Notes: a model not told the origin generated them from the sequence alone. A stretch of 30,169 nucleotides of DNA from Verrucomicrobiota bacterium (GCA_008932965.1 WBXG01000015.1:1-30169); one strand, 5' to 3'; shown: positions 1-29,959, numbered from the stretch's first letter. Numbers and translations are program-made.

Positions 1-227
1 CGAACACCTGATGGATACTGCGTCAGTCTCGAATTGCTCCTCGGGCAGTATGAAACATACAGCCGTCGTCGCAATCCATCACCTTCGTTGACTCGCTCGC
101 TCCCGCTCGTCTCGCCCTTTCAGAGCTGTCTAAAGACAGTCTCCACCGCGGTCTCCCGACCGCCGGTGGTGTCTGCATCAGGATTCGCGGCGCCTCGCGA
201 CGAATCAGTATGAAATATTCGGGCTAG
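1..227. repeat. R183 copy 1 (type-A arm), truncated by the window start; carries an extra ~86-bp GC-rich module at 87..172
   Basis: Positions 1..86 match copy 7 (15048..15133) at 84/86. The right end ...CAGTATGAAATATTCGGGCTAG finishes at 227 in the palindrome GGGCTAGCCC. Confidence 0.9.
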
Positions 228-254
228 CCCGCTCAACTATATTTTTAAAATGCT

Positions 255-1049
255 CTATGGAACTCTCACGGCAACACAATGATGAAGCACTCGATCTGGA
301 GAAAAATGCTCCGTAGAGCGAATCACAATTTCTATTCCTTGATGTTTCACAAAGCCATGTTGAGCTAATTCGGCTCCCAGATCCTGAAATGCTTCTAGCT
401 CCTTAACGAGAAGTTGATCTTGTGAAAGCACAAGGTTGGAACCACCAGGAATCTCAAGAAGGGACATGGGAATGAGGTGCCGTGCTAGTTGAGCAAGTTT
501 GTTATCAGTAGGGGTGAGGGATTGTGAGGCGGCATGTTTTACTTCGAGTTGAATCATGCGTGCCCGTGCTTCCGGACCTACCGACTCGAGGGCATGACTG
601 ATAGCATCTAGGAGGGTATGGCGCACCTCTGAGAGTTCATGGAGCTCTTGCAACTGTTGAAGTGCTTGTGTTTGATGAATAGCCTTTGCAAGAGAGGAGA
701 TCTCTTTGAGGTAGGCATTTTTTTGTGATTCTGGAACAAAATACATCACGACTAATCGCACTGGCTCAGAATCAGGAGAGCCATAACTGATTCCATGTGG
801 ACTCCAACCAACAGAACAAAGCAGTTCTGTATCACGCAAGGTGGAAGCATGAGGGCAAGCCCAACCTTTTCCAATTCCAGTATTATGGAGTTTTTCCCGT
901 GCGATGATTCTTTCAGTGACTTGATCTTCGACTTGAACTTCGGGAATAGCCTCAATTAAAGCAGAGAGAAATTCGAGGGCATCAGTCTTATCGTTATCGG
1001 GTAATTCAACCAATCGACCTTCTTGTAATGCATTAAGGAGAGCTTTCAT
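255..1049 (-). CDS. PTS EIIA type-2 / PtsN-like domain protein with an unassigned C-terminal ~110 aa
   Basis: 264-aa ORF. The N-terminal half has the EIIA(Ntr/Fru)-type phospho-His context HNTGIGKGWACPHA. I do not recognise the C-terminal part. Confidence 0.6.
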   Translation of the reverse strand: MKALLNALQEGRLVELPDNDKTDALEFLSALIEAIPEVQVEDQVTERIIAREKLHNTGIGKGWACPHASTLRDTELLCSVGWSPHGISYGSPDSEPVRLVVMYFVPESQKNAYLKEISSLAKAIHQTQALQQLQELHELSEVRHTLLDAISHALESVGPEARARMIQLEVKHAASQSLTPTDNKLAQLARHLIPMSLLEIPGGSNLVLSQDQLLVKELEAFQDLGAELAQHGFVKHQGIEIVIRSTEHFSPDRVLHHCVAVRVP

Positions 1050-1109
1050 GAAAAAATAGAAAAGTGATATTGAGAATGGGGTGAAGGCAAGGGTGATTCT
1101 GTGATTGTT

Positions 1110-1706
1110 TTACTCCATATGTAGTTTCTTTAACTTGGGTGCGATAACAGCACGACAGTAGGGAGCATTACGATTATTCTGATAATAATTTTGGTGATAT
1201 TTTTCAGCAGGATAAAAATGGGTCAGTGGTTCGATTTGTGTAACAATAGGTTTGGCGAAGCAATCTTGAGCGTTTTTCTTAGAAGCCTCTGCAAGCTTGT
1301 GTTGTTCTGGAGAGGTGGTGAAGATCACCGAGCGATATTGAGGGCCTAGATCAGCCCCTTGTTGATTCCATGTTGTAGGATCATGTGCACGCCAAAAAAG
1401 ATCGAGCAATTGATCATAAGAAATCTTTTTGGGATCATAGGTAATTTCAATAACCTCGGCATGCCCCGTCCCTCCTTCACAGACCTTCTCGTAAGTTGGA
1501 TTTTTACTCGAACCTCCAGCAAAGCCTGATTGGACCGAGATAACTCCTGGGAGTTTTTGAAAAAGAGCCTCCATGCACCAAAAGCATCCTCCTCCCAAAA
1601 CGGCTTGATCCTGATCTTTTGGAGCATTGGGTTCCGTTGCTAGCATGGATGAGATCATAGAAGTAAGAATTGAAGCGACGAGTAAAATTTTTCTGTAGCT
1701 ACTCAT
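1110..1706 (-). CDS. msrA: Peptide methionine (S)-sulfoxide reductase MsrA, probably exported
   Basis: 198 aa. It has the active-site motif GGGCFWCMEA, then GHAEVIEITYDP and YHQNYY. The N terminus is hydrophobic and signal-like (ILLVASILTSMISSMLA). Confidence 0.9.
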   Translation of the reverse strand: MSSYRKILLVASILTSMISSMLATEPNAPKDQDQAVLGGGCFWCMEALFQKLPGVISVQSGFAGGSSKNPTYEKVCEGGTGHAEVIEITYDPKKISYDQLLDLFWRAHDPTTWNQQGADLGPQYRSVIFTTSPEQHKLAEASKKNAQDCFAKPIVTQIEPLTHFYPAEKYHQNYYQNNRNAPYCRAVIAPKLKKLHME

Positions 1707-1872
1707 ACAATCTTTTTTTGGAGAGGGTTTTTTAAATTTTTGTATTTCTATAAATCGAGAGCGCTGGTCATTCTAGGATAAGTCTCAATTTTTGTTAATG
1801 AAAAATGTTGCTCCTCATCATGAGTCATAATCAGATAAGCCAGCCCTGGATTTTTCTTGAAACCTTCTCTGA

Positions 1873-2127: not shown

Positions 2128-3072
2128 ATGATTGCTTTTTATGTCCATGATCTAAGTCCTTTTCTTATCCAGTTTGGAAGTGAATTTGGTCTTCGTTGGT
2201 ATGGGCTCGCCTATATTCTGGCTTTTCTTTTTGGAACGCTGCTCTATCGGCACTTGGCCAAGCGTGGATATTCTGTGCTAACTCCGGATCAAGTGACCGA
2301 TTTTATTACCTGGGGTGCTCTCTTTGGTGTGGTTATTGGTGGACGACTTGGTTACATGCTTTTCTATGATCTAGATGCATTTTTACAAAACCCATTGATT
2401 TTTTTTCGTGTTTGGGAAGGGGGAATGTCTAGTCATGGAGGAATTATAGGCCTCGCTCTTTATTCTCTTTGGTATGCTCGACGTCATCATCTCTCGTGGC
2501 TCAACTTAGGAGATAATCTTGTTGTTGTTGCTCCTATTGGACTCTTCCTAGGACGTTGTGCCAATTTTATTAATGGAGAATTGTTTGGGCGTCCCACAAC
2601 TGTTTTTTGGGCTGTGCAATTTCCTAAGGAACTCGCTTTTCTTCCTCCTGGTTTTGTGGTGGCAACACTGCAGGATACATCAGCCATAAATCCTAAGTTT
2701 TGTACGATTGATGCGGTAGCAGAGGGAGTGCACTCCTCTCCTCAGCTCCACGACTACCTTGCCACTATCCTTACACCCCGTTATCCATCACAATTATTGG
2801 AAGCATTTTTAGAAGGGGTGGTGCTCTTCACTCTTCTCTGGATGCTGCGAACCCGCTGCCGTCTCCCCAATGGTATTCTAACAGGAGTTTTTTTTATTGC
2901 TTATGCGTTACTGCGTATTGCTGGAGAAATCGTTCGCGAGCCCGATGCGCCACTTATTGGTTGCTTCACCCGTGGAGAATTTTTTTCTTTCTTTCTGATC
3001 TTAATTGGAATTGGTTTTATTGCTGCGGCTAAGCTTCAATTACAAAAGACGCAAAAGACAAGTAATGGGTAA
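2128..3072 (+). CDS. lgt: Prolipoprotein diacylglyceryl transferase
   Basis: 314-aa polytopic ORF with RWYGLAYILAF, GGRLGYMLFY, WEGGMSSHGG and GRCANFINGELFGR. Its stop TAA (3070..3072) lies inside the left arm of H element 1. Confidence 0.9.
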   Translation: MIAFYVHDLSPFLIQFGSEFGLRWYGLAYILAFLFGTLLYRHLAKRGYSVLTPDQVTDFITWGALFGVVIGGRLGYMLFYDLDAFLQNPLIFFRVWEGGMSSHGGIIGLALYSLWYARRHHLSWLNLGDNLVVVAPIGLFLGRCANFINGELFGRPTTVFWAVQFPKELAFLPPGFVVATLQDTSAINPKFCTIDAVAEGVHSSPQLHDYLATILTPRYPSQLLEAFLEGVVLFTLLWMLRTRCRLPNGILTGVFFIAYALLRIAGEIVREPDAPLIGCFTRGEFFSFFLILIGIGFIAAAKLQLQKTQKTSNG

Positions 3073-3176
3073 TGGGTGAAAAATAGCACTCTTGGTAAAA
3101 TTGACCTTATATGATGCGGCCATTTTAGTTCGAGCTTGCCGCAGGTAAGAAACTACACTTATTACTCATTACTTTT
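3055..3176. repeat. H element 1 (inverted GTAATGR heptamer arrays)
   Basis: Left arm AAGACAAGTAATGGGTAATGGGTGA (3055..3079). The right arm CACTTATTACTCATTACTTTT (3156..3176) is weaker and degenerate. Confidence 0.7.
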
Positions 3177-3258
3177 TTACTTAGTCTTTTCAAATATTAG
3201 TTTCAAACCAAGAAGCCACTATCTTCCACAATTTACTATTTTCACTTAATAAGAGTTT

Positions 3259-3747
3259 ATGAATATTCGATTGCTGCACGAAGAGGATTGGAGGAGCTGG
3301 AAAGCTTTTAGACATCAAACATTGATTGATTTTCCGTTAGCTTTTTCTATCTCAATGGACGAGGAGGAAAGATTATCAGACCAACAGTTTAAAGATTGGA
3401 TTACAAGAAATACGATCTATGGATCATTTCTGGAAGATCAGATGATTGGATCTGTCGGATTTTTTAAGCTTGATTCCTCTAAAGAGCAGCATCGTGGTGT
3501 TCTCTTTGGAATGAATGTTTTACCTGCCTTTCAACGTCGTGGTCTTGCTGGAGAGCTAATGACGATCGTTCTCAAACATGCAAAAGACCATGTGATGCAG
3601 CTTCATTTAACTGTGGTTAGCTCTAACGAAACAGCAGTACGGCTCTACCAGCGTCATGGATTTAAGATTTATGGGACGGAACCCCGCTCTTTAAAAATAG
3701 AGGGTCATTTTTATGATCATCATCTCATGGTATTATTTTTTAATTAA
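3259..3747 (+). CDS. GNAT-family N-acetyltransferase
   Basis: 162 aa with the acetyl-CoA pocket motif QRRGLAGELM and C-terminal LYQRHGFKIYG. Confidence 0.8.
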   Translation: MNIRLLHEEDWRSWKAFRHQTLIDFPLAFSISMDEEERLSDQQFKDWITRNTIYGSFLEDQMIGSVGFFKLDSSKEQHRGVLFGMNVLPAFQRRGLAGELMTIVLKHAKDHVMQLHLTVVSSNETAVRLYQRHGFKIYGTEPRSLKIEGHFYDHHLMVLFFN

Positions 3748-3784
3748 GATCACTCTTCGCTCATTTCTATCTTCCCGCACCATC

Positions 3785-4492
3785 ATGCTTGAACCTATTG
3801 CTCAACTCCTTATTTTACAAAACACCGATCAGCATCTTCGGGAAGTAACTCAAGCACTTCTTCAACTTCCGCAAGAAAAAATTTCCTGTGAGAAAGCGCT
3901 ACGAGATGCTGATGAGAAGCTTCAATCTATTCGCTCATCTGAGCACCAGATAGAAAGAGAAATTAAAAAAAATGAAGGCGATATTCTTGCAAAGCAAACA
4001 CAGATTGCACGCTATCGCATTCAACAAATGGAGACTCGAAAAAATGAAGAGTATGCTGCCTTCAATCATGAGATTGCTCTTGGAGTAAAAGCCATCACGG
4101 CCTTGGAGGAACAGCAACTCGAGCTCATGGAGAAATGTGCATCACTCCAACCTGAGATTGAGAGAGCTCAAGAAGTCCATGCCATTGAACACAAACGCGT
4201 GAATGCCATCCTTGGTACCATCGATGGTCGCTCAGAAAATTTACTGGTCCGACAACGAGAGTTACAGAATGTGCGGCCTACTCTCACGCTCCCAATTGAC
4301 GAGGATATTTTAGATCGTTATGAGCGACTTTTTAAAAGTAAAAATGGAATGGCCGTTGCCGCCATTGAACATGGTGTCTGCACAGGATGTCATATGCAGA
4401 TGACGACTCAAACGATCCTCTCAGCCAAAGCAGAAAAAGAGATCATGATCTGCCCTCAATGTGGGCGCTTCCTTTATACGGAAGAGGACTAG
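3785..4492 (+). CDS. Coiled-coil C4 zinc-ribbon protein (COG1579-like)
   Basis: I chose the ATG at 3785 because the ORF-track start at 3713 overlaps the GNAT gene. A long heptad-rich region is followed by CTGCHM...CPQCGR. The stop TAG (4490..4492) lies inside the terminal CTAG of R183 copy 3. Confidence 0.7.
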   Translation: MLEPIAQLLILQNTDQHLREVTQALLQLPQEKISCEKALRDADEKLQSIRSSEHQIEREIKKNEGDILAKQTQIARYRIQQMETRKNEEYAAFNHEIALGVKAITALEEQQLELMEKCASLQPEIERAQEVHAIEHKRVNAILGTIDGRSENLLVRQRELQNVRPTLTLPIDEDILDRYERLFKSKNGMAVAAIEHGVCTGCHMQMTTQTILSAKAEKEIMICPQCGRFLYTEED

Positions 4493-4671
4493 CCCGTATA
4501 TTTCATCTCGATTTTGCTGCGGCTTGCGAACACCTAATGGATACTGTGTTGAGCTCGAAGTTTTCCTCTGGCGGTAGGGGGGCCTACAGCCCGTATCACC
4601 TCGCCCGCCATGTACTAATAAGCCTTGCTTCCCGTCCTCCGCAGTAGATTAGTGTGAAATATCCGGGCTAG
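4489..4671. repeat. R183 copy 3 (183 bp), filling the whole spacer between two convergent genes
   Basis: CTAGCCCGTATATTTCAT...GTGAAATATCCGGGCTAG. The arm is a diverged type A (GCGAACACCTAATGGATACTGTG). The apex hairpin is GGCGGTAGG-GGGG-CCTACAGCC. Confidence 0.9.
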
Positions 4672-6674
4672 ACCACTTCGACAGGGCATTCTGGGAGCGC
4701 TTTGAGAAAAGCTTTTCCATACGGTTTGTGAATGACTCGACTATCGAGAATGACAATGGTTCCCCGATCTTGCTTGTTACGAATCAAGCGGCCCACCCCT
4801 TGGCGTAATTTAAGAATAGCCTCGGGCAACGAGTAATCACGAAAGCCATCACCTCCCGTAGCCACAATCTGTTCAAAACGTGCCTCGGTAAGCGGATGAT
4901 CAGGTGTTGCAAAAGGGAGTCGTGTGATCATCACATTGGAAAGGGCCTCTCCTGGAATGTCCACTCCCGTCCAAAAGCTATCTGTGCCGAAAAGCACACA
5001 GGGCTTACCAGAGCGAAATTCCTCGAGCATCCTGGAGCGAGAAAGACCACCTCCTTGAACAAGCAAATTCCATTTTTTCTTATCAAAAAAGGGTTTTATC
5101 ACCGAGGCAATGCTTTGCATGCTTCGGTAGCTTGTAAAAAGAACAAACGTGCGTGCATCGCTCTGCTCGGTAAAATGGAGAATCCATTTTTTTAATGCCT
5201 CTTCATAACCGGGATGACGTGGGTCTGGCATTTGGCCCACAAGATGAATACGCATCTGTTTTTCATAATTAAAAGGAGAGCCAAGCTCTAATCCCTCTAC
5301 CTCGAAGGCACCAATACGCGAGCGAAAATAGTCGAGCTGAGGAGCTCCTGTTGAAAGTGTAGCACTCGTAAGGATAGCACTTGTTTTTTTTGAAAAGAGA
5401 TATTTTTGAAGATGGGATCCCATGTCAACGGGTGCTGCACGAAGTGTGCAGGAGGGGGTTATACGTCCGCTTTTTTCAATCCAATACACATGCTCTTGAA
5501 GATGTTGTTCTAAAAAAGAGAGTAGGCTCTCACTGCTTTGAGAGAGCTGTTTGGCAATATCGTTGAGTTCCACTTGGAGTGGTTCCTCCAGAGGAGCTGC
5601 GATGATCTCGATTAAAATCGCAAGACGATTGAAGCGCTCTATGAGTGCATCCTTGTTTTTTAAAAATGGCAACTGCTCCGGACTACGAATCCGAAATTCA
5701 CGTCCTTGTTTAAAATCACATTTAGAAAGAAGTGATTCAAAAAAACGATCACTCTCCTCGAGAAGCTCGGTGGTTGCTGTGATTGCTTTGGTGGCCTTGA
5801 GTTGTTGAAAAATCCCTTTGTGAGTTCTGGGATGATAGAGGCGATGGAGTAATTGTTTGAGTCCATACTGCGAAAGAGTAATTCCAAAGTGATGCGAGGC
5901 AATCGTCTCAATTGTATGAGCCTCATCAAGGACCACAAAATCATGAGGGAAAAGATATCCGGTCTCCGTTTCACTAGGATCCTCTAAGAGTGTAAAGAAA
6001 AGAGTATGGTTCAGGATTAAAACATCAGCGCTAAGGGCACGTCGTCGGGCTGCTTGATAAAAACAACGTGGATCCTTTCCACACGTTTTTGGAGAGCAGA
6101 GAGAACGATCGCTGCACACTTGAGCCCAAACGTTAGGATCAGGCTCTGGGGAGAGAGAGCTGAGTGTACCATCCCGTGTTGTCTCACTCCAGAGGCGTAT
6201 CCTTTCTAATTCGGGTAAGACATCACCGGAAAAAAGATCCTGGGCATAATGCAGGGCACGATTAAAACGTGCAGGACAAAAATAATTTTGACGTCCTTTG
6301 AGTAGTACAGCTTCAAAAGGAATCCCAAGAATTTTTTGCAAAAGAGGTAAATCCTTATAAAGGAGTTGTTCCTGAAGGGTGATAGTATGGGTGCAAATAA
6401 CCGCTTTTCGCCTGGAGGCAACCGAATGAAGAACAGCTGGAATCAAGTAAGCAAGCGATTTCCCAACACCTGTTCCTGCTTCGACCACAAGATGCGTCTC
6501 CCCTTCAAGAGCTTTGGCAATAGCATGGGCCATTTGAAACTGTTCTGGTCGAGTTTCAAATCCAGAAATTGTAGAAAGCAACCCCTTTTCTCCAAAAATG
6601 GCCACTACCTGATCCACAAGCGAGCTCCCCTTGGAGGTCGATTCGTGTAAATCTATTTTTTTAATAGTGTTCAT
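4668..6674 (-). CDS. dinG: DinG/Rad3-family ATP-dependent DNA helicase
   Basis: 668 aa with Walker A EAGTGVGKS, DEAH box VLDEAH, a Cys-rich Fe-S-type region (FCPARF...CSDRSLCSPKTCGKDPRC) and TSATLS. The stop codon (reverse complement of 4668..4670) lies in the right CTAG of R183 copy 3. Confidence 0.85.
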   Translation of the reverse strand: MNTIKKIDLHESTSKGSSLVDQVVAIFGEKGLLSTISGFETRPEQFQMAHAIAKALEGETHLVVEAGTGVGKSLAYLIPAVLHSVASRRKAVICTHTITLQEQLLYKDLPLLQKILGIPFEAVLLKGRQNYFCPARFNRALHYAQDLFSGDVLPELERIRLWSETTRDGTLSSLSPEPDPNVWAQVCSDRSLCSPKTCGKDPRCFYQAARRRALSADVLILNHTLFFTLLEDPSETETGYLFPHDFVVLDEAHTIETIASHHFGITLSQYGLKQLLHRLYHPRTHKGIFQQLKATKAITATTELLEESDRFFESLLSKCDFKQGREFRIRSPEQLPFLKNKDALIERFNRLAILIEIIAAPLEEPLQVELNDIAKQLSQSSESLLSFLEQHLQEHVYWIEKSGRITPSCTLRAAPVDMGSHLQKYLFSKKTSAILTSATLSTGAPQLDYFRSRIGAFEVEGLELGSPFNYEKQMRIHLVGQMPDPRHPGYEEALKKWILHFTEQSDARTFVLFTSYRSMQSIASVIKPFFDKKKWNLLVQGGGLSRSRMLEEFRSGKPCVLFGTDSFWTGVDIPGEALSNVMITRLPFATPDHPLTEARFEQIVATGGDGFRDYSLPEAILKLRQGVGRLIRNKQDRGTIVILDSRVIHKPYGKAFLKALPECPVEVV

Positions 6675-6717: not shown

Positions 6718-6763
6718 TTAGCCAGGATATTTCATCCTAATCATCTGCGGAGACGGGAAAGTC
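6718..6763. repeat. R183 terminal fragment overlapping the 3' end of dusB
   Basis: TTAGCCAGGATATTTCATCCTAATCATCTGCGGAGACGGGAAAG closely matches the reverse complement of the copy-3 right end (CTAGCCCGGATATTTCACACTAATCTACTGCGGAGGACGGGAAG). Confidence 0.75.
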
Positions 6764-7741
6764 AGATGGAGTCTGCAAAATGAGGGCGGGGCTAGCCTCA
6801 AGAGTTGAAAAAAGTTCTTCTAACTCGATGAGTGAAGAGACACAGGATATTTTTTCGCGTAAGGGGCGTGCTCCTGGAAAGCCTTTGGTGTAGGCCATAA
6901 GACGGGCACGCATGCTAGAGATAGCAAACGCTTCGTTTCCTTTAAAGGCAATTTCTTCCATGCAGTGGCGTCGAATCAGATCACAGCGCTCTTGTAATGT
7001 TGGGGGAATGAATTCCTTGTTACCATCGAGGGCAGCATGAATTTCAGCAAAAATCCACGGATTACTCATAGCTGCACGTCCAATCATGAGTCCTGCCACT
7101 CCTGTTTGTATCAAGTTTAACGCATCCTTTCCTGAGGTAATATCACCATTGCCAATGACAGGAATAGAAACTGCGGTTACGACTTGGGCAATCACCTCCC
7201 AGTCTGCTTTTCCAGAATAACCTTGTGCCTTAGTGCGACCATGGACGGCAAGCCGCTTGATTCCACTTTCTTCAAGGAGGCGCCCTGTGGTGGTGGCATT
7301 GATGGAATGCTCATCCCAACCGATGCGAATTTTTGCAGTGACGGGAAGCGGGGCTACTGCCTTAACCACAGCTACAGCGACTTTTTCTAATGTGGGACAA
7401 TCACGAAGTAAAGAAGAGCCCCCATGACGACAGACTACTTTATTAGCAGGACATCCAAAATTAAGATCAATAAAATCAGGCTGTACCCATTCAACGACCT
7501 GGCGCGCTGCTTCTGCAAGGCGCTCGGGATCTCCTCCAAAGAGTTGAACGCCGAGTGGACGCTCTTCCTCTGTGAACTCAAGGTAGCGTCGTGTTCTCTC
7601 ATTTTTATGCATGATCCCATCAGCAGAAACAAACTCTGTCGTAAGAACCGTGGCCCCTTGTTCTTTGCAAATACGACGAAAAATCGAATTTGTTACTCCT
7701 GCCATCGGAGCTAGGAAGAGAGGGAGTGGCATTAAAGACAT
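6737..7741 (-). CDS. dusB: tRNA-dihydrouridine synthase
   Basis: Motifs LAPMAGVTN, DLNFGCPANKV and AVHGRTKAQ. The start is uncertain: ATG at 7741 or 7732, or TTG at 7750 as in the ORF track. The last 8 codons (DFPVSADD) lie in the R183 fragment. Confidence 0.88.
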   Translation of the reverse strand: MSLMPLPLFLAPMAGVTNSIFRRICKEQGATVLTTEFVSADGIMHKNERTRRYLEFTEEERPLGVQLFGGDPERLAEAARQVVEWVQPDFIDLNFGCPANKVVCRHGGSSLLRDCPTLEKVAVAVVKAVAPLPVTAKIRIGWDEHSINATTTGRLLEESGIKRLAVHGRTKAQGYSGKADWEVIAQVVTAVSIPVIGNGDITSGKDALNLIQTGVAGLMIGRAAMSNPWIFAEIHAALDGNKEFIPPTLQERCDLIRRHCMEEIAFKGNEAFAISSMRARLMAYTKGFPGARPLREKISCVSSLIELEELFSTLEASPALILQTPSDFPVSADD

Positions 7742-7743
7742 TG

Positions 7744-7833
7744 AAGACAAGTAATGGATAATGGGTAATGAGTGATTGAATGTTCGACGTTTTTATGTTT
7801 TGTGCCAGCCACCCATTACCCATTACTCGTTAC
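7744..7833. repeat. H element 2
   Basis: Left arm AAGACAAGTAATGGATAATGGGTAATGAGTGA (7744..7775); right arm CACCCATTACCCATTACTCGTTAC (7810..7833). The arms are inverted copies of each other. Confidence 0.85.
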
Positions 7834-8337
7834 TGGATTGATCACAGATTGATTCAGAATGGAAGAGACCTCTTCTTGTACCTCTAATATATTTTCTAAA
7901 CTGAGCTTAGGATCCTGGATTAGAAATGTCTCCCCGGTGGTAGCATGTTCATACACCAAGACATAGGGTTCTGAAGAGGGAAGTGGCTTCAATACCTTTT
8001 TTCGCTCCAACATCACGGCGAGAATATAGATTGCATTCAGGTTTTTAGTATCCTGAAGGGATAAGAGTTGGCGTAACATCTCCTCTGCATCATTCTTGGG
8101 TAGGGTTTCTGGAGCAGGAGCAGGAGGTAATTCATAAAGAGAACACCACGATGAGAAAGGAACTGGAGAAGCCGGATCTTTTTTCCTCTCTTCCCAAGCT
8201 GCTTCACTTAAGTCCAATCGTTCGTACCCTTCATGAGTAGAAAAAAGAAGTGTATAAAAAAATGCTCCCTCTACAAAGGGTAGCCCCGTTGCCTGGCAGG
8301 TCTTTGAGCGGGATGTGATGTTCCAATCGTAGAGCAT
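7816..8337 (-). CDS. Hypothetical protein (173 aa)
   Basis: Clean ORF with ordinary composition and no family motif I can name. Its stop codon and last codons (..PVTSNG) lie in the right arm of H element 2. Confidence 0.6.
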   Translation of the reverse strand: MLYDWNITSRSKTCQATGLPFVEGAFFYTLLFSTHEGYERLDLSEAAWEERKKDPASPVPFSSWCSLYELPPAPAPETLPKNDAEEMLRQLLSLQDTKNLNAIYILAVMLERKKVLKPLPSSEPYVLVYEHATTGETFLIQDPKLSLENILEVQEEVSSILNQSVINPVTSNG

Positions 8338-21720: not shown

Positions 21721-21793
<73 letters not shown>

Positions 21794-21827
21794 CAGCTGC
21801 CTTATAGAAGCGAGGGAAGCGAGGTCT

Positions 21828-21871
21828 CACCTGGATATCTTATGTCATTACCTGTGGAAATCGGAAGCTAG
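21828..21871. repeat. R183 left-end fragment (type-C-like) just downstream of tRNA-Phe
   Basis: CACCTGGATATCTTATGTCATTACCTGTGGAAATCGGAAGCTAG resembles the copy-9 left end CCCGGATATGTCACACCAATCACCTGCGGAAGTCGAGAAGC. Confidence 0.6.
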
Positions 21872-21875
21872 CATG

Positions 21876-22058
21876 CTAGCCCCCCTATTTCACAATCAAT
21901 CTATTACGGAAGCTGGGAAGTCAGATAGATGCTGCGTTGAGCTCGAAGTCTTCCTCGGGCATTAGGGACTTCTACGCCCTGCGTCAAAATACGTTTCTGC
22001 CTTATTCCATCAGCCTTTGCGGCTTCCTCGTTACGATCGTATGAAATATCCGGGCTAG
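21876..22058. repeat. R183 copy 10 (183 bp)
   Basis: CTAGCCCCCCTATTTCACAATCAATCTATTACGG...GCTCGAAGTCTTCCTCGGGC...CGTATGAAATATCCGGGCTAG. Confidence 0.9.
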
Positions 22059-22139
22059 GGATGAAGAGCATGTTTATCACATCCCCTTTTCAATTGAATA
22101 CACTATAAAAAACAAAGTGACTCCAAGCACAAAGTAAAG

Positions 22140-24452
22140 ATGTCTTACGCCCGTATTCTCATAGACCGTACCGAAGGCACCGAACTTGACTATGCCATTC
22201 CAGATGAGCTGCAACAGCGCGTTGAAGTAGGGGTACGGGTCCGTGTTCCATTACGCAAAGCCATTGTGATGGGAGTGGTGCTTTCGTTGCACGACAAAGT
22301 TGCCTTTTCCAAGGTCAAAAAAATCATAGAAGTGATCGATTACCGTGCTCTATGCCATGAGGGAGAAGAGGGATCGGGCACATTGGAAACCTCACAGGAA
22401 AGACCATTAATTTCTCCTAAGATTATGAAGCTTGCCTATTGGATGGCCGACTATTACTGCACCTCCCTGGATGCCGTTTTGCGGTCGTTAGTTCCAACAA
22501 CAATTCGTAACAATTCTCTTACAGAAAAAAAAGTAAGGATGGCTATTCTACTCAAAACACCTTCTCCAACATTTCTGCATGCTCTTGGCGTACGTGCCCC
22601 CAAACAAAAAGCGTTACTCGAGCTCTTGCTCTCCTCCAAGGAGAAAATGAGCGCTGCCAAGCTCCTTAAACAAACAAAGGCAACAGGGAGTTCCTTACAT
22701 GCATTGGTTCAAGAAGGATGGATTTTTCTTAAGGAAGAATCGGTTTCACGTGATCCCTTTTCTCATGAGGAACTATTGCCAAGTCCTATCCCTAAACTCA
22801 ATAGCGATCAATATCGGACAGTAGCTCTCATTAATGAAGAACTCCTGCGGGTAGTAGCATTAGAAAAAAAATCAGAGCCTTTTATTTCACTTCCTTTTTT
22901 ACTTCATGGAGTCACAGGAAGCGGTAAGACAGAGGTCTATTTGAGGGCTATGGAAAAGGCTCTCGCACTTGGAAAATCTGTTCTTATTTTAGTTCCTGAA
23001 ATCGCACTCACCCCACAGACAGTAGAGCGCTTCCGAGCACGCCTTGAGCATACTCAAGAAAAAAAACTCATTGCAGTCTTACATAGTCATCTCTCGGAGG
23101 GAGAACGTCATGATGAGTGGTTGCGTCTGCATCGAGGAGAGGCGCGGATTGTGATAGGAGCAAGAAGTGCGATTTTTGCTCCATTGCAAGATTTAGGTCT
23201 CATCATTGTGGATGAAGAACATGAGACTAGTTACAAACAAGAGGAGACCCCTCGCTATCATGCTCGAGATGTAGCTGTCATGCGTGCCCGCTATGAAGGA
23301 GCTGTCCTAGTGCTTGGCAGTGCTACCCCCTCAATTGAAAGCATGAACAATGTGCACCTTGGGAAATATGCTCTCCTAGAACTTCCTAAGCGTGCTGATC
23401 ATCAACGTATGCCACTGGTGCGAGTGATTGATATGCGATTGCAAGGAAGGCAGCAGGGGGCAGATGCTATTCTCTCCTTTTTGTTGCGCCAGGCGATAGC
23501 AGATCGATTAGAACGCTCCGAGCAGGTGATTCTTTTTCTCAATCGTCGAGGATTTTCTAGCGCACTGTTATGCCCTCAATGTGGTACCGCTTGCTCATGT
23601 CCTAACTGCAGCCTGTCACTCACATTTCATCGAGCGAGCCAGCGACTCATTTGCCATCTCTGTGGCCATATGGAAAAGCCACCGACGACATGTCCTAGCT
23701 GCCACGAAGCTGGTATTTTATATTCAGGAGTAGGAACCCAGCGTGTGGAGGCAGCCGTGCAGCAAGCTTTTCCAACGGCACGGTGTTTTCGTATCGATGC
23801 TGATAGCATGCAACGCAAAGGATCCTACCAAGAAACCTTCGATCGCTTTAGAAAAAAACAGATCGATATTCTTATTGGGACACAGATGATTGCAAAGGGA
23901 CTTGATTTTCCTAATGTCACCCTGGTTGGTATCATTAATGCCGACACAACCCTCCATGCTCCTGACTTCCGTGCAGGTGAGAGAACATTTCAACTCTTGA
24001 CGCAGGTTGCAGGCCGCGCAGGTCGGGGAGATCGGGAAGGAGAGGTGATGATTCAAACATACACCCCAGAAAGCCCTTCTATTCAATTTGCACGGCATCA
24101 CGATACCTCTGGATTTTTCGAGCAAGAGATGGCTTTGCGACAGCAGTTTGAATACCCACCCTTTCAAAAAATGATTTTGATTCAATTAAGGGGGGTCGAT
24201 CAAGAGCACGTCGCCTTACATAGTGCTACTTTAAGAAAAAACCTGCGGCTTGCCCTTCCAGATTCTATCAACATTGGAGAGGCAGTCCCAGCATCACTGG
24301 AGCGTGCACATGGACAATATCGTTTTCACATTGCTCTTCACGGACCCTGCTCCAAAGCTATTAAAATAACGATGTGCAAGGTCATTGCCTCGTATGAATT
24401 TCCCTCTAGTGTTGTGATCACTATCGATGTCGATCCTCAATCCCTCATGTAG
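22140..24452 (+). CDS. priA: Primosomal protein N' (replication restart helicase PriA)
   Basis: 770 aa with Walker A GVTGSGKTEVY, the IVDEEHE box and a Cys-rich zinc insert (CPQCGTACSCPNCSLSLTFH..CHLCGH..CPSCH). Confidence 0.9.
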   Translation: MSYARILIDRTEGTELDYAIPDELQQRVEVGVRVRVPLRKAIVMGVVLSLHDKVAFSKVKKIIEVIDYRALCHEGEEGSGTLETSQERPLISPKIMKLAYWMADYYCTSLDAVLRSLVPTTIRNNSLTEKKVRMAILLKTPSPTFLHALGVRAPKQKALLELLLSSKEKMSAAKLLKQTKATGSSLHALVQEGWIFLKEESVSRDPFSHEELLPSPIPKLNSDQYRTVALINEELLRVVALEKKSEPFISLPFLLHGVTGSGKTEVYLRAMEKALALGKSVLILVPEIALTPQTVERFRARLEHTQEKKLIAVLHSHLSEGERHDEWLRLHRGEARIVIGARSAIFAPLQDLGLIIVDEEHETSYKQEETPRYHARDVAVMRARYEGAVLVLGSATPSIESMNNVHLGKYALLELPKRADHQRMPLVRVIDMRLQGRQQGADAILSFLLRQAIADRLERSEQVILFLNRRGFSSALLCPQCGTACSCPNCSLSLTFHRASQRLICHLCGHMEKPPTTCPSCHEAGILYSGVGTQRVEAAVQQAFPTARCFRIDADSMQRKGSYQETFDRFRKKQIDILIGTQMIAKGLDFPNVTLVGIINADTTLHAPDFRAGERTFQLLTQVAGRAGRGDREGEVMIQTYTPESPSIQFARHHDTSGFFEQEMALRQQFEYPPFQKMILIQLRGVDQEHVALHSATLRKNLRLALPDSINIGEAVPASLERAHGQYRFHIALHGPCSKAIKITMCKVIASYEFPSSVVITIDVDPQSLM

Positions 24453-26528
24453 CTATTCCTCAATAGGAAAAAAGGGGTCGTCTTGGAGGCTCTCTTCTTC
24501 ATCAGAATGAGAATGAATAAGTGACTGGCGGTCCTTATTTTTACTAACAATCTGTTCTTCGATAGATGAGTAGAGGGTATAGTGACCGGGATATTCTTCC
24601 TGGAATTTCCTCCAGCGGTTGGAAAGAGCAGTTTTTTTTTCCAATAATTCTTGGAAAAGAGATTCGTTTTCCTCTTCCATGCTTACATCATCGATGTAGG
24701 ACAAAGCAAAGTCCTGGGATGAAGCTTTTTCACATAAAAACTCCTCATGCCTGAGCTTCAGATAAGGTAACAACGCAAGAGTGAATGTTGAGGTAAAGTC
24801 ATTGATCGGACAAGGAGTAGCTAAAACAGGTGAGGTAGCTCTAGAGGGCTTGAAGAATACCAAACCTTTAGTTGAGCGATCAGTAGTCTTAGAATCCCTT
24901 ATTGGTTCTTCACGAGAATAGTCATCAAAGAGTTGTTCCATCTTTAAATCACTCTTGGAATAGAGCTCTTCTGCTTGATTAGAAGCCTTAACAAGCTTAT
25001 TCCAAGCTTCCTCTGAGTTTTGTTTTAATGCCTCATCACGGAAAAAAAAGAGATCATGAATAGCATCACAGTAATGGGTGATCTGTTGCCAAGAGGCGAC
25101 ATGTTTTGTTGCCTCTTGTTTTGTTGCCTCTTGATAACTGTTCTCTATATGAGTGATGGGTCGAGGGCGATCATTATATAAGGATGCTTGGAACCGTTGG
25201 AAATCAGCTTTGTCCTCCAGGATTGTTTGATGATGCTCTAGAAGAAGGATTGATTCCTCATAACAGTCATTCCAATCTGTGGTACTAAGTGTCCGAGATG
25301 CTTTTCTCAGAAAACTGTTAAAATTTTTGCTAGCCTCTAGAAATTGAGGGTTTGATAATTTCTTGGTCTGAAAGCTTACTGACTGGCTAGAATATTCATC
25401 CTTTGAGGAAGATGAAGTGCTATCAATAAGGATAGCGGATGAGCGTCGAGAACCAGAGAGTCCTTGATTAGTAGCACTTAACGAGGTTTGCCCGCTTCTT
25501 TCATCCTCATTAACGAAGAAATCTAGGAAGCCAAATGGATCCTGCGTTGGATTTTTATCTCGACTTAGGTGGTAGGGACTCACAGAGCCCTTACTAAACA
25601 TGCTCGCCTCCCTTTCCTCATCAGCCTTCTCATTACAATCAAATCGCTCCCTTAATGACTTGAGGCGTCTCCAAGAGCAAAGAGCATGCTCCAGTGTTGT
25701 TTTTCTCTTTATTTGAGGACTGTCTTCATGATCCCGACTATCGTAATTGAGATGAGAATGCTCTATTATTAGAGGTGCATCACTTTTTCTACAAGAGGGG
25801 CTCCAGTACCACGCTCCAGCTGTAATCACTCCAATCAATACTATGGCTTCAATAGGATCATCCCACGAAGAAGCACTGGTTGTTTTCTCCTCTTTTTCAC
25901 AATCTAATGATTCTTCTTTCTGGCTTATGGAAAAGCGAATCTGATTCGAATAAAGTGATGCATCTATTTGGGTGATCTCCTGGGAAGGGTTGGATTGAAG
26001 AAAACAATGTAGGGATAGCAGAGGAGAGCTAAAACCACTTATCCATGCGCCATAGTATTCTGCAGTCCTCGTGTTTAAAAATAATACTGAATCCAAGCCC
26101 GATCTTTCATGCTGATCACCTCCGAAGCCACAGAGATCAGATGAATGCTGTGTGAGATTTCCGTTTTGAATGGGGGAATATACATGCATACAGCCTCCCC
26201 TTGCCATGCTCGCTTGCGTTGCCTCTGGAGCCTGAGAAGACTCTTCGTTACGGTCACTTTGTAATATAGGGTCTAGGCCTGATTGAACCTGGCTTTGGTA
26301 GTGATAGTGACCTGGTTCTCCAATCCGAAAGATGGCCTCGATGCCCACATACAGATCATCACTACAGGCCGCTTGAGTCATGTCATTAAGAAAGAGTGTG
26401 TAGGAGGTTGTAGTAATCAATCTTGATTTGGAAAGAGGATCTTCCGAGAGAAGAAGATGATTGATCGATAAAAAAATAATTCCCAAGAAAAGTGATTTAA
26501 AAAGGAAATTAAAATTCAAGGACCTCAT
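24453..26528 (-). CDS. Hypothetical single-pass membrane protein (about 691 aa), orphan
   Basis: I prefer the ATG at 26528 (MRSLNFNFLFKSLFLGIIFLS, signal-like) over the TTG at 26552. A central TM segment (AIVLIGVITAGAWYW) is followed by a long Ser/Asp/Glu-rich tail. I recognise no family motifs. Confidence 0.6.
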   Translation of the reverse strand: MRSLNFNFLFKSLFLGIIFLSINHLLLSEDPLSKSRLITTTSYTLFLNDMTQAACSDDLYVGIEAIFRIGEPGHYHYQSQVQSGLDPILQSDRNEESSQAPEATQASMARGGCMHVYSPIQNGNLTQHSSDLCGFGGDQHERSGLDSVLFLNTRTAEYYGAWISGFSSPLLSLHCFLQSNPSQEITQIDASLYSNQIRFSISQKEESLDCEKEEKTTSASSWDDPIEAIVLIGVITAGAWYWSPSCRKSDAPLIIEHSHLNYDSRDHEDSPQIKRKTTLEHALCSWRRLKSLRERFDCNEKADEEREASMFSKGSVSPYHLSRDKNPTQDPFGFLDFFVNEDERSGQTSLSATNQGLSGSRRSSAILIDSTSSSSKDEYSSQSVSFQTKKLSNPQFLEASKNFNSFLRKASRTLSTTDWNDCYEESILLLEHHQTILEDKADFQRFQASLYNDRPRPITHIENSYQEATKQEATKHVASWQQITHYCDAIHDLFFFRDEALKQNSEEAWNKLVKASNQAEELYSKSDLKMEQLFDDYSREEPIRDSKTTDRSTKGLVFFKPSRATSPVLATPCPINDFTSTFTLALLPYLKLRHEEFLCEKASSQDFALSYIDDVSMEEENESLFQELLEKKTALSNRWRKFQEEYPGHYTLYSSIEEQIVSKNKDRQSLIHSHSDEEESLQDDPFFPIEE

Positions 26529-26639
26529 AAAAATAATAAAATAGGATATCAATTAACCTTTTTTGCTAAAATACAAGTGTCAATTTGCGTAGTGACACAA
26601 TTTTGGCGATTTTGTAGCAATCATTCCAAAAAAACCAAT

Positions 26640-26668: not shown

Positions 26669-26679
26669 CACTTGCCCTA

Positions 26680-27741
26680 TTGCAAAACAACCATCCATCA
26701 CAACTCGTGTCCGAACAACTCACTTACGTACTCATTACCCCAAAAGCCCTCTATAAGGCACGTACTGGTAATATCCTTTCCCGTCTTCTTTCTCGCTCTG
26801 GATTAGATCTTGTAGGAGCTCGGATGTTTATTCCGAGCAAGGAGCTTGGTGAGGCTCTAGCCGATAACTTCAGCACCCAAGAGTTAACAAGTGCCTTCCT
26901 GCGTGGATCCCTTCCACAAGAGGGTAATCAGATGCTATGCCTGCTTCTCCAAGGTGAGGATGCTATTAAAACAGTGAGCACCATTGTTGGTGATGATGAA
27001 CGTATGGATAGTCGTGGAGAGACACTACGTGATACTTATGGAGATCATGTTCTGCTTCACGAGGAAGAAGGTGAAGAGCCTGCAATCTACTATTTTGAAC
27101 CTGCTGTTATTGCTCCTAATACAAAACAAGATACTGCTCAGGGGCTTGCTCTTTTAGCTCAATTTTCCGAAAGCGATGGTGGTATTTTTGATATCACCTC
27201 TCAGTTTCCTCAAGATACTAAAGTAGAAAAAACCCTCGTTCTCATCAAACCTGATAATTTCGATTTCCCTAATACACGGCCAGGTGGCGTTATTGATCTC
27301 TTGGCACGTACAGGACTTGCTCTTGTAGGAGTCAAAATACATCAAATGAGTGTGACTCAAGCAAAAGAGTTTTATGGGCCTGTACTACAAGTCCTGGAGG
27401 CTAAACTTCCAGATGGTCGCATTCATTGGGAATCCATTATTGCCTTTATGTCTGGCGCTCGCCCTTCAGAGCTGCCTGAAGAAGAACATGCATTACCAGG
27501 AAACCAACTCTGCGTAGCACTGATTTATCAAGGTGAAGAGGCCATTGCAAAAATAAGAAACGTTCTGGGTCCTACAGATCCAGCAAAAGCACCTCACGGA
27601 ACCGTTCGTAAAGAGTTTGGTAAAGATATTATGATTAATGGAGCCCACGCTTCGGATTCCTCCGAAAGTTTCTTGAGGGAAATTGCTATTATCAATATCA
27701 ACGAAAACAATTTCAAATCGGTCATTCTCGCTCATCGCTAA
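26680..27741 (+). CDS. Two-domain nucleoside diphosphate kinase-like protein (degenerate N-terminal domain plus a C-terminal NDK domain with an insertion)
   Basis: 353 aa. The C-terminal half aligns to Ndk (EKTLVLIKPDNF, GLALVGVKIHQMSVTQAKEFY, GPTDPAKAPHGTVRKEFG, NGAHASDS with the catalytic His). The N-terminal half is NDK-like (LTYVLITPKA..GLDLVGARMF) but lacks the NxxH motif. The TTG start is uncertain. Confidence 0.72.
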   Translation: MQNNHPSQLVSEQLTYVLITPKALYKARTGNILSRLLSRSGLDLVGARMFIPSKELGEALADNFSTQELTSAFLRGSLPQEGNQMLCLLLQGEDAIKTVSTIVGDDERMDSRGETLRDTYGDHVLLHEEEGEEPAIYYFEPAVIAPNTKQDTAQGLALLAQFSESDGGIFDITSQFPQDTKVEKTLVLIKPDNFDFPNTRPGGVIDLLARTGLALVGVKIHQMSVTQAKEFYGPVLQVLEAKLPDGRIHWESIIAFMSGARPSELPEEEHALPGNQLCVALIYQGEEAIAKIRNVLGPTDPAKAPHGTVRKEFGKDIMINGAHASDSSESFLREIAIININENNFKSVILAHR

Positions 27742-27772
27742 AACTCAATACATCTTAACATCTCCTTTTATT

Positions 27773-28936
27773 ATGGAACTCGCTCCTCGCATCGCTCATA
27801 TCACTCCTTCACTCACTCTTTCTATCGATAGCAAAGCAAAAGCATTACGTGCTCAGGGTGTGGATGTCTGTAGTTTTGCTGCTGGAGAACCTGACTTTGA
27901 TACGCCTGAACATATCAAAGCAGCTGCAATCAAGGCTCTAGAAAATAATTTCACACGCTATACTCCTGTTGCTGGCATTCCAGAATTACGCGAAGCGATT
28001 GCGCACAAATTTCTCACAGAAAACCAGCTCGATTATCAACCTCAAGAGATCATTGTGAGCAATGGTGCAAAACAGAGTTGTTTCAATGCGATTATGGCCT
28101 GTGTAGGTGAAGGAGATGAGGTTATTATCCCAGCTCCTTATTGGATTAGCTATCCAGAGATGGTGCGTCTTGCGGGTGCAGAGCCAATCATTATTCCAAC
28201 AACAGCAGCTAACAATTGGAAGATTACTGCTGAGGATTTTGCCAATGCCATGTCACCTCGGACTAAAATGATCATTATCAACTCCCCCGGTAACCCTACT
28301 GGAGCCATTTATACTAAGGAAGAACTCCGTGCTATTGCTGAAGTGGCAGCTGATGAAGAAATTTTGATACTCTCGGATGAAATTTATGAAAGTCTTATTT
28401 ATGATGAGCTCAAACATGTGAGTATTGCTTCTGTGACTCCAGAGGCACGTGATTTAACGATCACCATCAATGGTTTCAGCAAGGCTTATGCGATGACTGG
28501 ATGGCGTCTTGGATACCTTGGAGCTCCTAAAAAAATAGCTCAAGCAATCGAAGCCCTTCAAAGCCATAGCAGTTCTAATGCTTGTTCCTTTGCTCAATAT
28601 GGAGCTGTTGCAGCATTAAATAGTAGCCAACAGTGCGTCGCCGATATGCGTGAAGAATTTAATATTCGTCGCGAATATATGTATGATCGTCTCTCCAAAA
28701 TGCATCAGCTTTCGGCTATAAAACCATCGGGGGCCTTTTATATGCTGACTGATATTTCTAAGTTTGGAATGTCCTCCATGAACTTTGCAGATCGTCTCCT
28801 AAGTAAATCCAATGTTGCCGTTATTCCAGGAATTGCATTTGGTAATGATAAAACAATTCGTATGAGCTATGCAACGGGCATGGATATCATTAAAGAGGGC
28901 CTTGATCGTTTGGAAGATTTTTGTAAGACATTATAA
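27773..28936 (+). CDS. Aspartate/aromatic aminotransferase (class I PLP enzyme)
   Basis: I prefer the ATG at 27773 (MELAPRIAHITPS...). Motifs are GEPDFDTP, NPTGAIY and the PLP-lysine motif SKAYAMTGWRLGY. Confidence 0.9.
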   Translation: MELAPRIAHITPSLTLSIDSKAKALRAQGVDVCSFAAGEPDFDTPEHIKAAAIKALENNFTRYTPVAGIPELREAIAHKFLTENQLDYQPQEIIVSNGAKQSCFNAIMACVGEGDEVIIPAPYWISYPEMVRLAGAEPIIIPTTAANNWKITAEDFANAMSPRTKMIIINSPGNPTGAIYTKEELRAIAEVAADEEILILSDEIYESLIYDELKHVSIASVTPEARDLTITINGFSKAYAMTGWRLGYLGAPKKIAQAIEALQSHSSSNACSFAQYGAVAALNSSQQCVADMREEFNIRREYMYDRLSKMHQLSAIKPSGAFYMLTDISKFGMSSMNFADRLLSKSNVAVIPGIAFGNDKTIRMSYATGMDIIKEGLDRLEDFCKTL

Positions 28937-28988
28937 TTACAAAAAATCACGGTGATGACAGGGATGTGAATTCGTAAATGATGATTCT

Positions 28989-29897
28989 ATGCATTCATCC
29001 TTGCGTTATTCCTTCTCCTCCTGGGTCATTGAACGAAGGAAGCTTGTTAATGCTGCATTAAGAGAGGCATTGCCTTCGGTAAAGACACAACCAACAACCC
29101 TTCATCGAGCAATACGCTACTCGCTTTTTGCAGGTGGTAAAAGACTCCGTCCCATTTTATGTCTTGCCGCTGCAGAGGCCTGTTCTTCCAAAGGAGACCC
29201 TCTCAAGTCTGCAATGCCATCAGCCTGTGCCCTAGAGTGTTTACACACTTATTCCTTGATTCACGATGATCTTCCATCGATGGATAATGATGATCTTCGG
29301 CGAGGAAAACCTACATGCCATCATGTTTTTGGTGAAGGAATAGCTATTTTAGCAGGAGATGCCTTACTCACCGGGAGTTTTGAATTATTAGCACACGTTA
29401 AGCCAACCAAACGTTATCCATTACAAGTTTTTTTAAAAGAGATGGCTCATGCTGCCGGAAGCCAGCAGTTAATTGCTGGTCAAGTAGCCGATCTAGAAGC
29501 TGAGGGGAAAAAGTGGAAGCTCTCAGATATTAGCTTCATTCATCAACGTAAGACGGCAGCACTCATCATACTCTCACTGAGACTTGGTGCGATGTCGGTG
29601 AATGCGACTTCTCGACAATTAGATACCTTAACATCTTTTGGAGCTGCTCTCGGACTGGCCTATCAAATTATTGATGACATCCTAGATGTAACCCAGTCAC
29701 GTGAGCAACTTGGTAAAAGTTCTGGTAAAGACATCACTGCGCAAAAAGCTACCTACCCTGCAGTAATGGGTGTACCAGCAGCACTCCAAGAAGCTGAAAA
29801 ACAAACCAATAAGGCAATGATGGCTTTAAAATCATTGGGGAAACAAGCAGCAATGCTCGAACTCTTTGCAAGGGAGCTATTAGAAAGGACGAAGTAG
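28989..29897 (+). CDS. Short-chain (E)-polyprenyl diphosphate synthase (FPP/GGPP synthase)
   Basis: The first Asp-rich motif is LIHDDLPSMDNDDLRRGKPT and the second is IIDDILD. Length is 302 aa. Confidence 0.9.
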   Translation: MHSSLRYSFSSWVIERRKLVNAALREALPSVKTQPTTLHRAIRYSLFAGGKRLRPILCLAAAEACSSKGDPLKSAMPSACALECLHTYSLIHDDLPSMDNDDLRRGKPTCHHVFGEGIAILAGDALLTGSFELLAHVKPTKRYPLQVFLKEMAHAAGSQQLIAGQVADLEAEGKKWKLSDISFIHQRKTAALIILSLRLGAMSVNATSRQLDTLTSFGAALGLAYQIIDDILDVTQSREQLGKSSGKDITAQKATYPAVMGVPAALQEAEKQTNKAMMALKSLGKQAAMLELFARELLERTK

Positions 29898-29939
29898 ACT
29901 CTTCAAGAAAATCTACGATAAAGTCTAATTATCCCTTTT

Positions 29940-29959
29940 CTATGAAATATCCGGGCTAG
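29940..29959. repeat. Solo R183 right terminus
   Basis: CTATGAAATATCCGGGCTAG is identical over 18 nt to the right terminus of copy 10. No recognisable internal R183 sequence lies upstream. Confidence 0.7.

Follow-up and report, generated by a model that had tools for sequence, protein, structure and literature searches.

The DNA analyzed in this study is a 30,169-nucleotide stretch of a Verrucomicrobiota bacterium (GCA_008932965.1, WBXG01000015.1:1-30169; one strand, 5' to 3'), hereafter the window, whose housekeeping genes are separated by copies of a short palindromic repeat, R183. R183 is very probably a non-autonomous miniature inverted-repeat transposable element (MITE) recognized by a transposase of the IS1380 family, which resides mostly between genes in freshwater Chthoniobacterales and is readable through when it lies within a gene. 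In the mechanism proposed here, an IS1380-family DDE transposase supplied in trans would recognize the R183 termini, insert the element at YTAR tetranucleotides and duplicate the four target bases. Most surviving copies are intergenic and many of them are old (fixed among strains, some shared between species, some decaying). The frame that starts at the duplication (CTA or TTA, Leu) is usually stop-free in both orientations; insertions within genes can be read through as extra residues and have persisted in at least two proteins.

R183 was recovered in the window in three ways: by repeat finding, by alignment and with a profile built from the full copies. The terminus CCCGNATATTTCAYAC (16 nt, at most two mismatches) had 17 matches in the window, against 0.05 expected from shuffles. 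In total, eight full copies (182-184 bp), four partial copies and two diverged copies within the open reading frame (ORF) 24453-26552 were counted. R183 makes up ~7% of the window, and its density is about one copy per 2.5 kb across ~50 kb. The terminus CCCGSATATTTCAYAC (16-19 nt) is found at both ends of all full copies, and an internal box and an apex hairpin (GGCAGTATG...CATACAGCC) are conserved across copies, whose pairwise identity within the window is 60-90%. The element proper runs from CCCG[G/C/A]ATATTTCA[C/T]AC to the inverse of the same sequence, and is an imperfect palindrome over its whole length. Its core has a modal length of 176 bp (175-176 bp in the window copies; range 175-182 bp), and a long variant of 257 bp is present in two species.

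These results bear on an earlier note, made from the sequence of this stretch alone. The repeat family it placed in 12 spacers was borne out by the terminus count and the profile, with two intervals shortened: within 21828-22058 only 21876-22058 matches R183, and within 1873-2106 the copy covers 1874-2057 and is followed by only a weak extra fragment. The internal box, the apex hairpin and the absence of a transposase from the window stood as described; none is encoded there, and the ORFs within R183 have no family match. The inverted termini are shared by the full copies as stated, except that the outer CTAG belongs to a 4-bp target duplication and not to the inverted repeat. The statement that all copies are intergenic failed on the two diverged copies inside ORF 24453-26552 and on a further fragment that encodes the C-terminus of DusB.

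The transposase that owns the termini was sought by clustering the ORFs located inward of each terminus match. One recurrent protein of ~450-490 aa was found between two inverted termini 1.6-1.8 kb apart and is an IS1380-family transposase (Pfam PF13701, E values of 1e-127 and 5e-162; NCBIfam NF033539, 347 and 423 bits against a cut-off of 180). Full-length insertion sequences (ISs) with R183-type termini were located in other genomes of the Planctomycetes-Verrucomicrobia-Chlamydiae (PVC) group and in metagenomes (L060 and L096, on the same chromosome; L068, L102, L053 and L113), and the ends that bound such elements are CCCGGATATTTCA. Metagenome contigs were also scanned with the transposase alignment, giving 80 loci. 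About 30 of these are bounded at both ends by CCCGSATATTTCA-type termini, with 1575-1703 bp between them and nearly always YTAR flanks; in most of the remainder, the contig is too short or the sequence too diverged for both ends to be seen. The nearest named elements, ISPa33 and ISPosp7, share 47-53% protein identity. The ends of ISPa33 are CCCGGATTTCTCATGA (CCCGGAT.T.TCA...) with CTAA/CTAA flanks, and those of ISPosp7 are CCCGCATATTTCACGC, adjoining CTAG. IS1380-family ends start with CC and the duplication is 4-5 bp (ISfinder family description); the R183 ends (CCCG...) and 4-bp duplication fit this description, as do those of ISPa33.

Flanks were compared for 87 terminus pairs across all loci examined. 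Since CTAG and TTAA flanks look alike under a TA and a 4-bp duplication, only non-palindromic flanks are informative. In ten of 11 such elements the flanks are direct repeats (CTAA/CTAA in eight, TTAG/TTAG in two), the window copy at 15010 and the full IS in L096 among them. Because of these direct flanks the duplication is taken as 4 bp at YTAR, with the element running from CCCG to CGGG, and on this comparison the insertion target and duplication were shown to be YTAR (CTAG, TTAA, CTAA). The earlier note had favored a MITE moved by an IS630/Tc1-mariner transposase at the TA inside CTAG, in which the outer C...G would be target and GCCCG...CGGGC the inverted repeat. The palindromic CTAG and TTAA flanks, including the pair around the copy at 1-227, predict the same sequence under that model and the 4-bp model, and the TTAG/CTAA flanks of a deleted IS in L018 are allowed by it. 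However, each of the ten direct-flank elements would then need two matched mutations, the termini start with CC, as do IS1380-family ends, and the transposase encoded by the full-length elements found with these termini is in every case of the IS1380 family and in none of the IS630 family. No IS630-family element with GCCCGSATATTTCA termini was found among the loci searched; the recurrent ORFs beside the terminus all belong to the IS1380 family, with no IS630 cluster. Mobilization by an IS630-type enzyme with duplication of TA is thus extremely improbable.

The distribution of the family was examined by scanning one genome for each of 185,579 species with the terminus TARCCCGNATATTTCAYAC, and at least 111 stretches matched. 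Among the matches listed, nearly all are in Verrucomicrobiota metagenome-assembled genomes (MAGs) and a few in Planctomycetota, Kiritimatiellia and Lentisphaerota; many are +/- terminus pairs ~183 bp apart, and at least 42 full-length R183 copies are present. The closest MAGs among these matches are Chthoniobacterales Tobar2m-G38 (85-87% nucleotide identity in genes) and 'Spartobacteria' Kiruna_bin-02438 (~79%), both syntenic with parts of the window, and on these grounds the host is taken to be a freshwater Chthoniobacterales bacterium. A cyanobacterial origin and with it a Nezha/IS630 idea, based on GC content and heptamer repeats, were dropped once the scan and the synteny had placed the window in this order. 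Contigs ~99% identical to the window are present in many lake metagenomes. No similarity of R183 DNA to plasmids was found. Some occupied sites are common to species at 79-85% nucleotide identity, and the orthologous spacer of the 6718 fragment is occupied in L075 too. The copies at 12622, 8384 and 6718 and an orthologous copy in L052 are decaying.

Filled and empty sites were compared in 21 conspecific contigs (~99% identity). Every R183 copy is fixed except the one at 1-227, which is present in the window, L127 and L128, and is replaced in L129-L132 by an empty site with a single CTAG. The empty allele reads GAGCGGG CTAG CCTCCAAC and the filled allele GAGCGGG CTAG CCCGAATATTTCA...ATATGCGGG CTAG CCTCCAAC. 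With at least one copy variable within the species, the family has undergone recent movement or excision. No other presence/absence differences were found among the 21 contigs, only indels of 9-18 bp and changes in heptamer arrays. An indel in L002/L006 at 25556-25710 was considered as an empty site and rejected, as it is an internal deletion of a decayed copy and not an excision. With two sites inside genes (26094-26276 versus L133, and L110 versus L218; see below), three filled/empty pairs are available. The features that define bacterial MITEs are all found in R183: a length below 300 bp without a transposase, inverted termini, a target duplication with single-copy empty sites, and termini shared with autonomous ISs. 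Copies beyond the window and empty sites in related strains, on which the earlier note had staked its mobile-element model, were both found, with the family spread over many Verrucomicrobiota genomes and a clean empty/filled pair among 99%-identical strains. Its view of R183 as a non-autonomous MITE therefore held on termini, target duplications, spread and polymorphism; the supply of the transposase in trans is the part that would still follow by inference.

Two R183 copies are translated within ORF 24453-26552 (- strand), which encodes a conserved hypothetical protein of 640-699 aa across strains and 595 aa in a sister species. The 699-aa product has homologs in related populations, and its syntenic ortholog in the sister species is P0004 (L133, 595 aa). 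P0004 lacks exactly the 60 residues that the 699-aa protein has at the copy 26094-26276 (+), whose 60 codons correspond to aa 92-151, between two G-L-D repeats. The DNA at this site reads GGC CTAG, a diverged 175-bp core and CTTG in the window, and AGC TTAG AT in L133. The other copy, 25488-25632 (+), is old and decayed and is translated as aa 307-355; strains differ there by in-frame indels of 9 and 138-147 bp.

Other loci were screened for R183 copies within long open frames, and one such copy was retained, in L110. Here a 257-bp element (within 292-548, flanked by TTAA/TTAA) separates the transglycosylase domain from the transpeptidase domain in a class A penicillin-binding protein (PBP1A) of a sister lineage. 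The DNA reads CCA TTAA [257 bp] TTAA GTC in L110 versus CCA TCAA GTC in L218, which encodes P0008. The PBP1A homolog P0005 (741 aa) carries an insert of 87 residues and P0006 and P0007 (714 and 715 aa) inserts of 60 residues; P0008 (654 aa, 96% identical to P0005) and all more distant homologs (~650 aa) have none. The difference between the 87- and 60-residue inserts is an 81-bp module (27 codons), and translation of R183 in frame 0 gives the inserted peptide (LTRIFHTARGEE...CEISGL). Five further copies were not counted as coding insertions: that in L101 may lie upstream of the true start, the ORF around that in L022 has no family match, and the high GC content around those in L062, L073 and L076 commonly produces long spurious ORFs. 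Core plus duplication measures 176 + 4 = 180 bp or 257 + 4 = 261 bp, both multiples of three. With this length and a frame that is usually stop-free in both orientations, an R183 insertion in a gene can be read as 60 or 87 extra residues.

The 81-bp module that distinguishes the long variant is GC-rich, contains two small internal palindromes and is nested in some R183 copies, adding exactly 27 codons. It is ~94% identical between the copy at 1-227 and a copy of the Kiruna lineage, while the genes of those species are only ~79% identical, a contrast suggestive of a subfamily that is young and has been spreading recently. The module may be a separate nested mobile unit.

Folding was examined copy by copy, with arm-against-arm counts, in place of a consensus structure; from 34 copies aligned with MAFFT, in an alignment that is not structure-aware, RNAalifold had recovered only 26 pairs. 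All R183 copies fold into a long rod, with z = -8 to -14 for one strand, and the copy at 16359-16541 forms on the + strand a near-perfect 90-bp hairpin (-94.5 kcal/mol, z = -12). The same R183 strand is the more stable in 36 of 42 copies, by a mean of 12 kcal/mol. Pairs of G.U are in modest excess over A.C mismatches in the arms (199 versus 154). The orientation of the stable strand shows no bias relative to genes (5 same and 7 opposite between tandem genes; 15/12 downstream; 13/16 upstream). Within 12000-22500, none of 16 terminator-like and nine promoter-like (sigma-70-like) sites falls inside R183. In Rfam searches the gathering mode matched tRNA only, and four R183 copies searched at E<=1 gave nothing relevant. 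A strand-specific RNA function was considered and rejected: the folding asymmetry is real, yet there is no orientation bias, and the asymmetry is taken as an inherited property.

Two other histories of the family were weighed against these data. Retention as a structured RNA or DNA signal of the REP or ERIC kind (stabilizer, terminator or protein-binding hairpin), with mobility secondary, is a role for which the earlier note had left room. The rod-like folding with its steadier strand and the G.U excess would suit it, as would a length tightly conserved despite differing arms and the occupation of every long spacer of the window (on the gene map, each of the 11 spacers above 160 bp is occupied by R183 or by an 'H' hairpin, as had been claimed). 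Such a role is nevertheless very unlikely, since orientation bias, internal terminator or promoter sites and an Rfam match are all missing in the searches above, copies decay, the copy at 1-227 is dispensable within the species, copies also occur within coding sequence, and the strand asymmetry can come from a founder copy. The hairpin is better seen as a property of the element, which may be needed for transposition or may be inherited from the founder, and the evidence does not point to a host function. The other history makes R183 a fossil in this organism, its transposition over, and the polymorphism at 1-227 a precise, transposase-independent deletion by slippage between CTAG repeats that flank a strong hairpin. 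The fixation of all other copies among ~99%-identical strains agrees with this, as do the identities of only 60-90% among window copies, the occupied sites shared at 79-85% nucleotide identity and the lack of a transposase nearby. However, the polymorphic copy is the long variant with the ~94%-identical module, only 4% of the protein sequence separates filled from empty PBP1A alleles, and slippage on 4-bp repeats is rare. We consider this history unlikely, with a better claim than retention as a signal.

Several observations weigh against R183 as a MITE mobilized by an IS1380-family transposase. The ~50 kb of the source genome and the 8-kb pieces of the two closest MAGs that were searched contain neither an IS1380-family transposase nor a full-length IS bounded by such termini; assemblies commonly break at ISs, which bears on this result. 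In a profile search of 90 IS loci, R183 and the sampled ISs were alike over only ~20 nt of terminus, so that no parent IS was identified. The flanks of one element are inverted (TTAG/CTAA, around the deleted IS in L018). The lone within-species polymorphism may have arisen by deletion instead of insertion, and mobilization in trans is what we infer from sequence comparison. As to reading through, 13 copies are exactly 176 bp long, and on each strand 11 of these are stop-free in frame 0; neutral divergence simulated from the consensus would leave 3.0 and 5.4 open. The other frames have 2-3 stops per copy. The frame test ignores shared ancestry, three of the copies come from high-GC genomes and the palindrome makes the strands non-independent. 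With so crude a test, selection on R183 for translatability is plausible rather than shown. A tentative proposal, possible rather than probable, is that element-level selection for coding tolerance shaped R183 (a length that is a multiple of three, a Leu-encoding target and a stop-free frame in both orientations across subfamilies differing at 40%). R183 would then be the Verrucomicrobial counterpart of the Rickettsia palindromic elements (RPEs) and the first such element with an identifiable transposase family, possibly with seamless excision like piggyBac.

The termini of R183 also bound MITEs of other sizes in other Verrucomicrobiota (131, 140-143, 154, 197, 209-211 and 229-232 bp), so that this IS group has yielded miniature derivatives repeatedly. 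Elements with IS1380-type termini and YTAR duplications measure 131 bp in L014, L030, L063 and L084, 140 bp in L064 and L092, 143 bp in L015, L026 and L113, 209 bp in L048 and L098, and 231-232 bp in L031, L047, L071 and L100. With the 4-bp duplication added, sizes of 128, 131, 140, 143, 197 and 209 bp become multiples of three. Some R183 copies (in L009, L075 7248-7474, L106, L107 and L117) have an insertion of ~90 bp exactly at the hairpin apex (profile position 85), a site different from that of the 81-bp module. On one strand (e.g. 15090-15110) the apex hairpin reads GGCTGTATG TTT CATACTGCC and includes the 10-mer TTTCATACTG, which is present in the terminal repeat too. The shared 10-mer might serve the transposase as an internal binding site, as subterminal repeats do in piggyBac, or be coincidental.

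The remaining copies of the window are described in order. The long-variant copy at 1-227 (+) is entered by the window 34 nt inside; its full 257-bp core is seen in L127, its right CTAG is at 224-227 and its 81-bp module at ~90-170. A full copy at 1873-2059 (+; profile 1874-2057) lies between the divergent msrA and lgt, is flanked by TTAG at left and degenerate at its right end, and is followed by the weak arm fragment at 2064-2104. The full copy at 4489-4671 (+) has a 175-bp core between two CTAG duplications and separates convergent genes. The TAG of each CTAG (4489-4492 and 4668-4671) is the stop codon of one of these genes, 3713-4492 (+) and dinG/yoaA (4668-6674, -); the two gene ends apparently overlapped at a single CTAG into which R183 went, so that neither protein was altered. 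A left-end fragment at 6718-6776 (+; profile 6719-6776) supplies the last ~13 codons and the stop of dusB (-), and an internally deleted copy at 8384-8490 (+) retains both termini around a 101-bp core. At 12622-12805 (+; profile 12622-12804) the left end is intact (CTAA CACGAATATTTCAG), the right arm is decayed and the fold is weak (-34 kcal/mol).

The full copies at 14405-14588 (+) and 15010-15193 (+; profile 15010-15192) have 176-bp cores and are 90% identical to each other. The former, with CTAG/CTAG flanks, lies downstream of rpsN (S14) and its frame from the duplication is open on the - strand; in the latter, flanked by a CTAA/CTAA direct repeat, frame 0 is open on both strands. The full copy at 16359-16541 (-; profile 16360-16541) lies between the convergent pepQ and thiD, with TTAA/TTAG flanks. 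That at 18151-18334 (+; profile 18152-18333) lies between divergent genes, its left duplication decayed (ATTG) and its right one TTAA. Another full copy, at 21876-22058 (+; CTAG/CTAG), is found between a tRNA gene (21721-21793) and priA, and a solitary right terminus (TATGAAATATCCGGG CTAG) at 29940-29959 (-; profile 29941-29959) lies downstream of crtE. The genes of the window are housekeeping genes: msrA, lgt, dinG/yoaA, dusB, lptG, pgeF, tolC, a CNNM transporter gene, rpsN, pepQ, thiD, priA, ndk, an aminotransferase gene and crtE.

Several features of the annotation and assembly were noted. The mechanically called starts of pepQ (15183) and of a gene for a 601-aa protein (18324) are ATGs within the terminal repeat (GTATGAAATATGCGGG). 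The same ORF list contains small ORFs (57-92 aa) that span entire R183 copies, at least one of which is called as a gene in public contigs. These starts and small ORFs are probably annotation artefacts caused by the repeat. Contig ends fall inside R183 at the start of the window, at the starts of L122-L124 and at the end of L128; R183 evidently breaks short-read metagenome assemblies of the source organism. At 21806, downstream of the tRNA gene and upstream of the 21876 copy, several strains have an insertion of 9 or 18 bp relative to the window. The CNNM/CorC transporter gene (12828-14344) is split into two overlapping frames in the window and is a single intact 500-aa gene in all other strains, a difference due either to a frameshift mutation or to a sequencing error. 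In the nucleoside-diphosphate kinase (NDK) ORF (26680-27741; 344-353 aa) the NDK domain covers only residues ~180-338, and the N-terminal ~180 residues have no family match. The 'H elements' (3048-3179, 7737-7834 and 9699-9851; also 7878-7976 and 12686-12763 in L129) are hairpins at gene ends whose stems are tandem arrays of a heptamer (GGTAATG / CATTACC). The arrays reach 12-15 units in another conspecific strain, and H elements are absent from the related species examined.

R183 was compared with known elements. It resembles the IS1380 ISs ISPa33 and ISPosp7 in its terminal inverted repeats and 4-bp duplication; unlike these elements of 1.6-1.8 kb, it has no transposase, is 176 bp long and is palindromic throughout. 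The TTAA target of piggyBac, the eukaryotic relative of IS1380, resembles the YTAR target. ERIC/IRU of enterobacteria, Correia/NEMIS of Neisseria and Nezha of cyanobacteria share with R183 a small size, inverted termini, a target duplication, hairpin potential and intergenic enrichment. To our knowledge these are linked to other IS families or to none, and Correia elements duplicate TA, whereas R183 duplicates 4 bp. REP/BIME sequences are likewise abundant extragenic palindromes and are linked to RAYT (IS200/IS605-like) enzymes. One account describes REPs as 20-40 bp long with GTAG or CGTC heads (PMC3733652). R183 differs from them in its length of 176 bp, its CCCG heads, its DDE-type inverted termini and its target duplications.

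RPEs and R183 are both short palindromic repeats found between genes and in frame within unrelated protein genes, and the 60- and 87-codon in-frame insertions in the conserved hypothetical protein and PBP1A are the RPE-like trait of R183. The hosts differ (Rickettsiales for RPEs, Verrucomicrobiota for R183), as does the largely intergenic location of the R183 copies here. R183 further stands out by its clear inverted termini, its 4-bp duplication and a transposase family that can be named, and we know of no RPE for which inverted termini, a defined duplication or a transposase family have been established. Given its host, and as the comparison is one of description, R183 is treated as an analogue of the RPEs and not as a member. 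RPEs are read through as extra peptide segments in protein genes, and classical bacterial MITEs form occasional in-frame fusions with genes (PMC10969869). IS1380 transposases serve as the prokaryotic outgroup of piggyBac (PMC10813416). No link of MITEs to IS1380 or to Verrucomicrobia was found in the searchable papers, those on IS1380 and MITEs not connecting the two. Neither IS1380 nor Verrucomicrobia appears in a 2024 review of prokaryotic MITEs, which does describe in-frame fusions by RPEs and others. This is consistent with R183 being previously undescribed, as the earlier note had supposed, the in-frame fusion of palindromic elements being already known.

For abundant uncultured freshwater Verrucomicrobiota, the findings link a very dense repeat family to an IS family and to an exact insertion chemistry. 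Repeats of this type break metagenome assemblies and mislead gene callers, both in the choice of starts and through small ORFs inside the repeat. The clean insertions of 60 and 87 codons show that 'selfish DNA in genes' read in frame extends beyond Rickettsia, and because a candidate transposase is known, the process of insertion into genes is now open to laboratory test. The YTAR target connects the prokaryotic IS1380 elements with the TTAA specificity of piggyBac.

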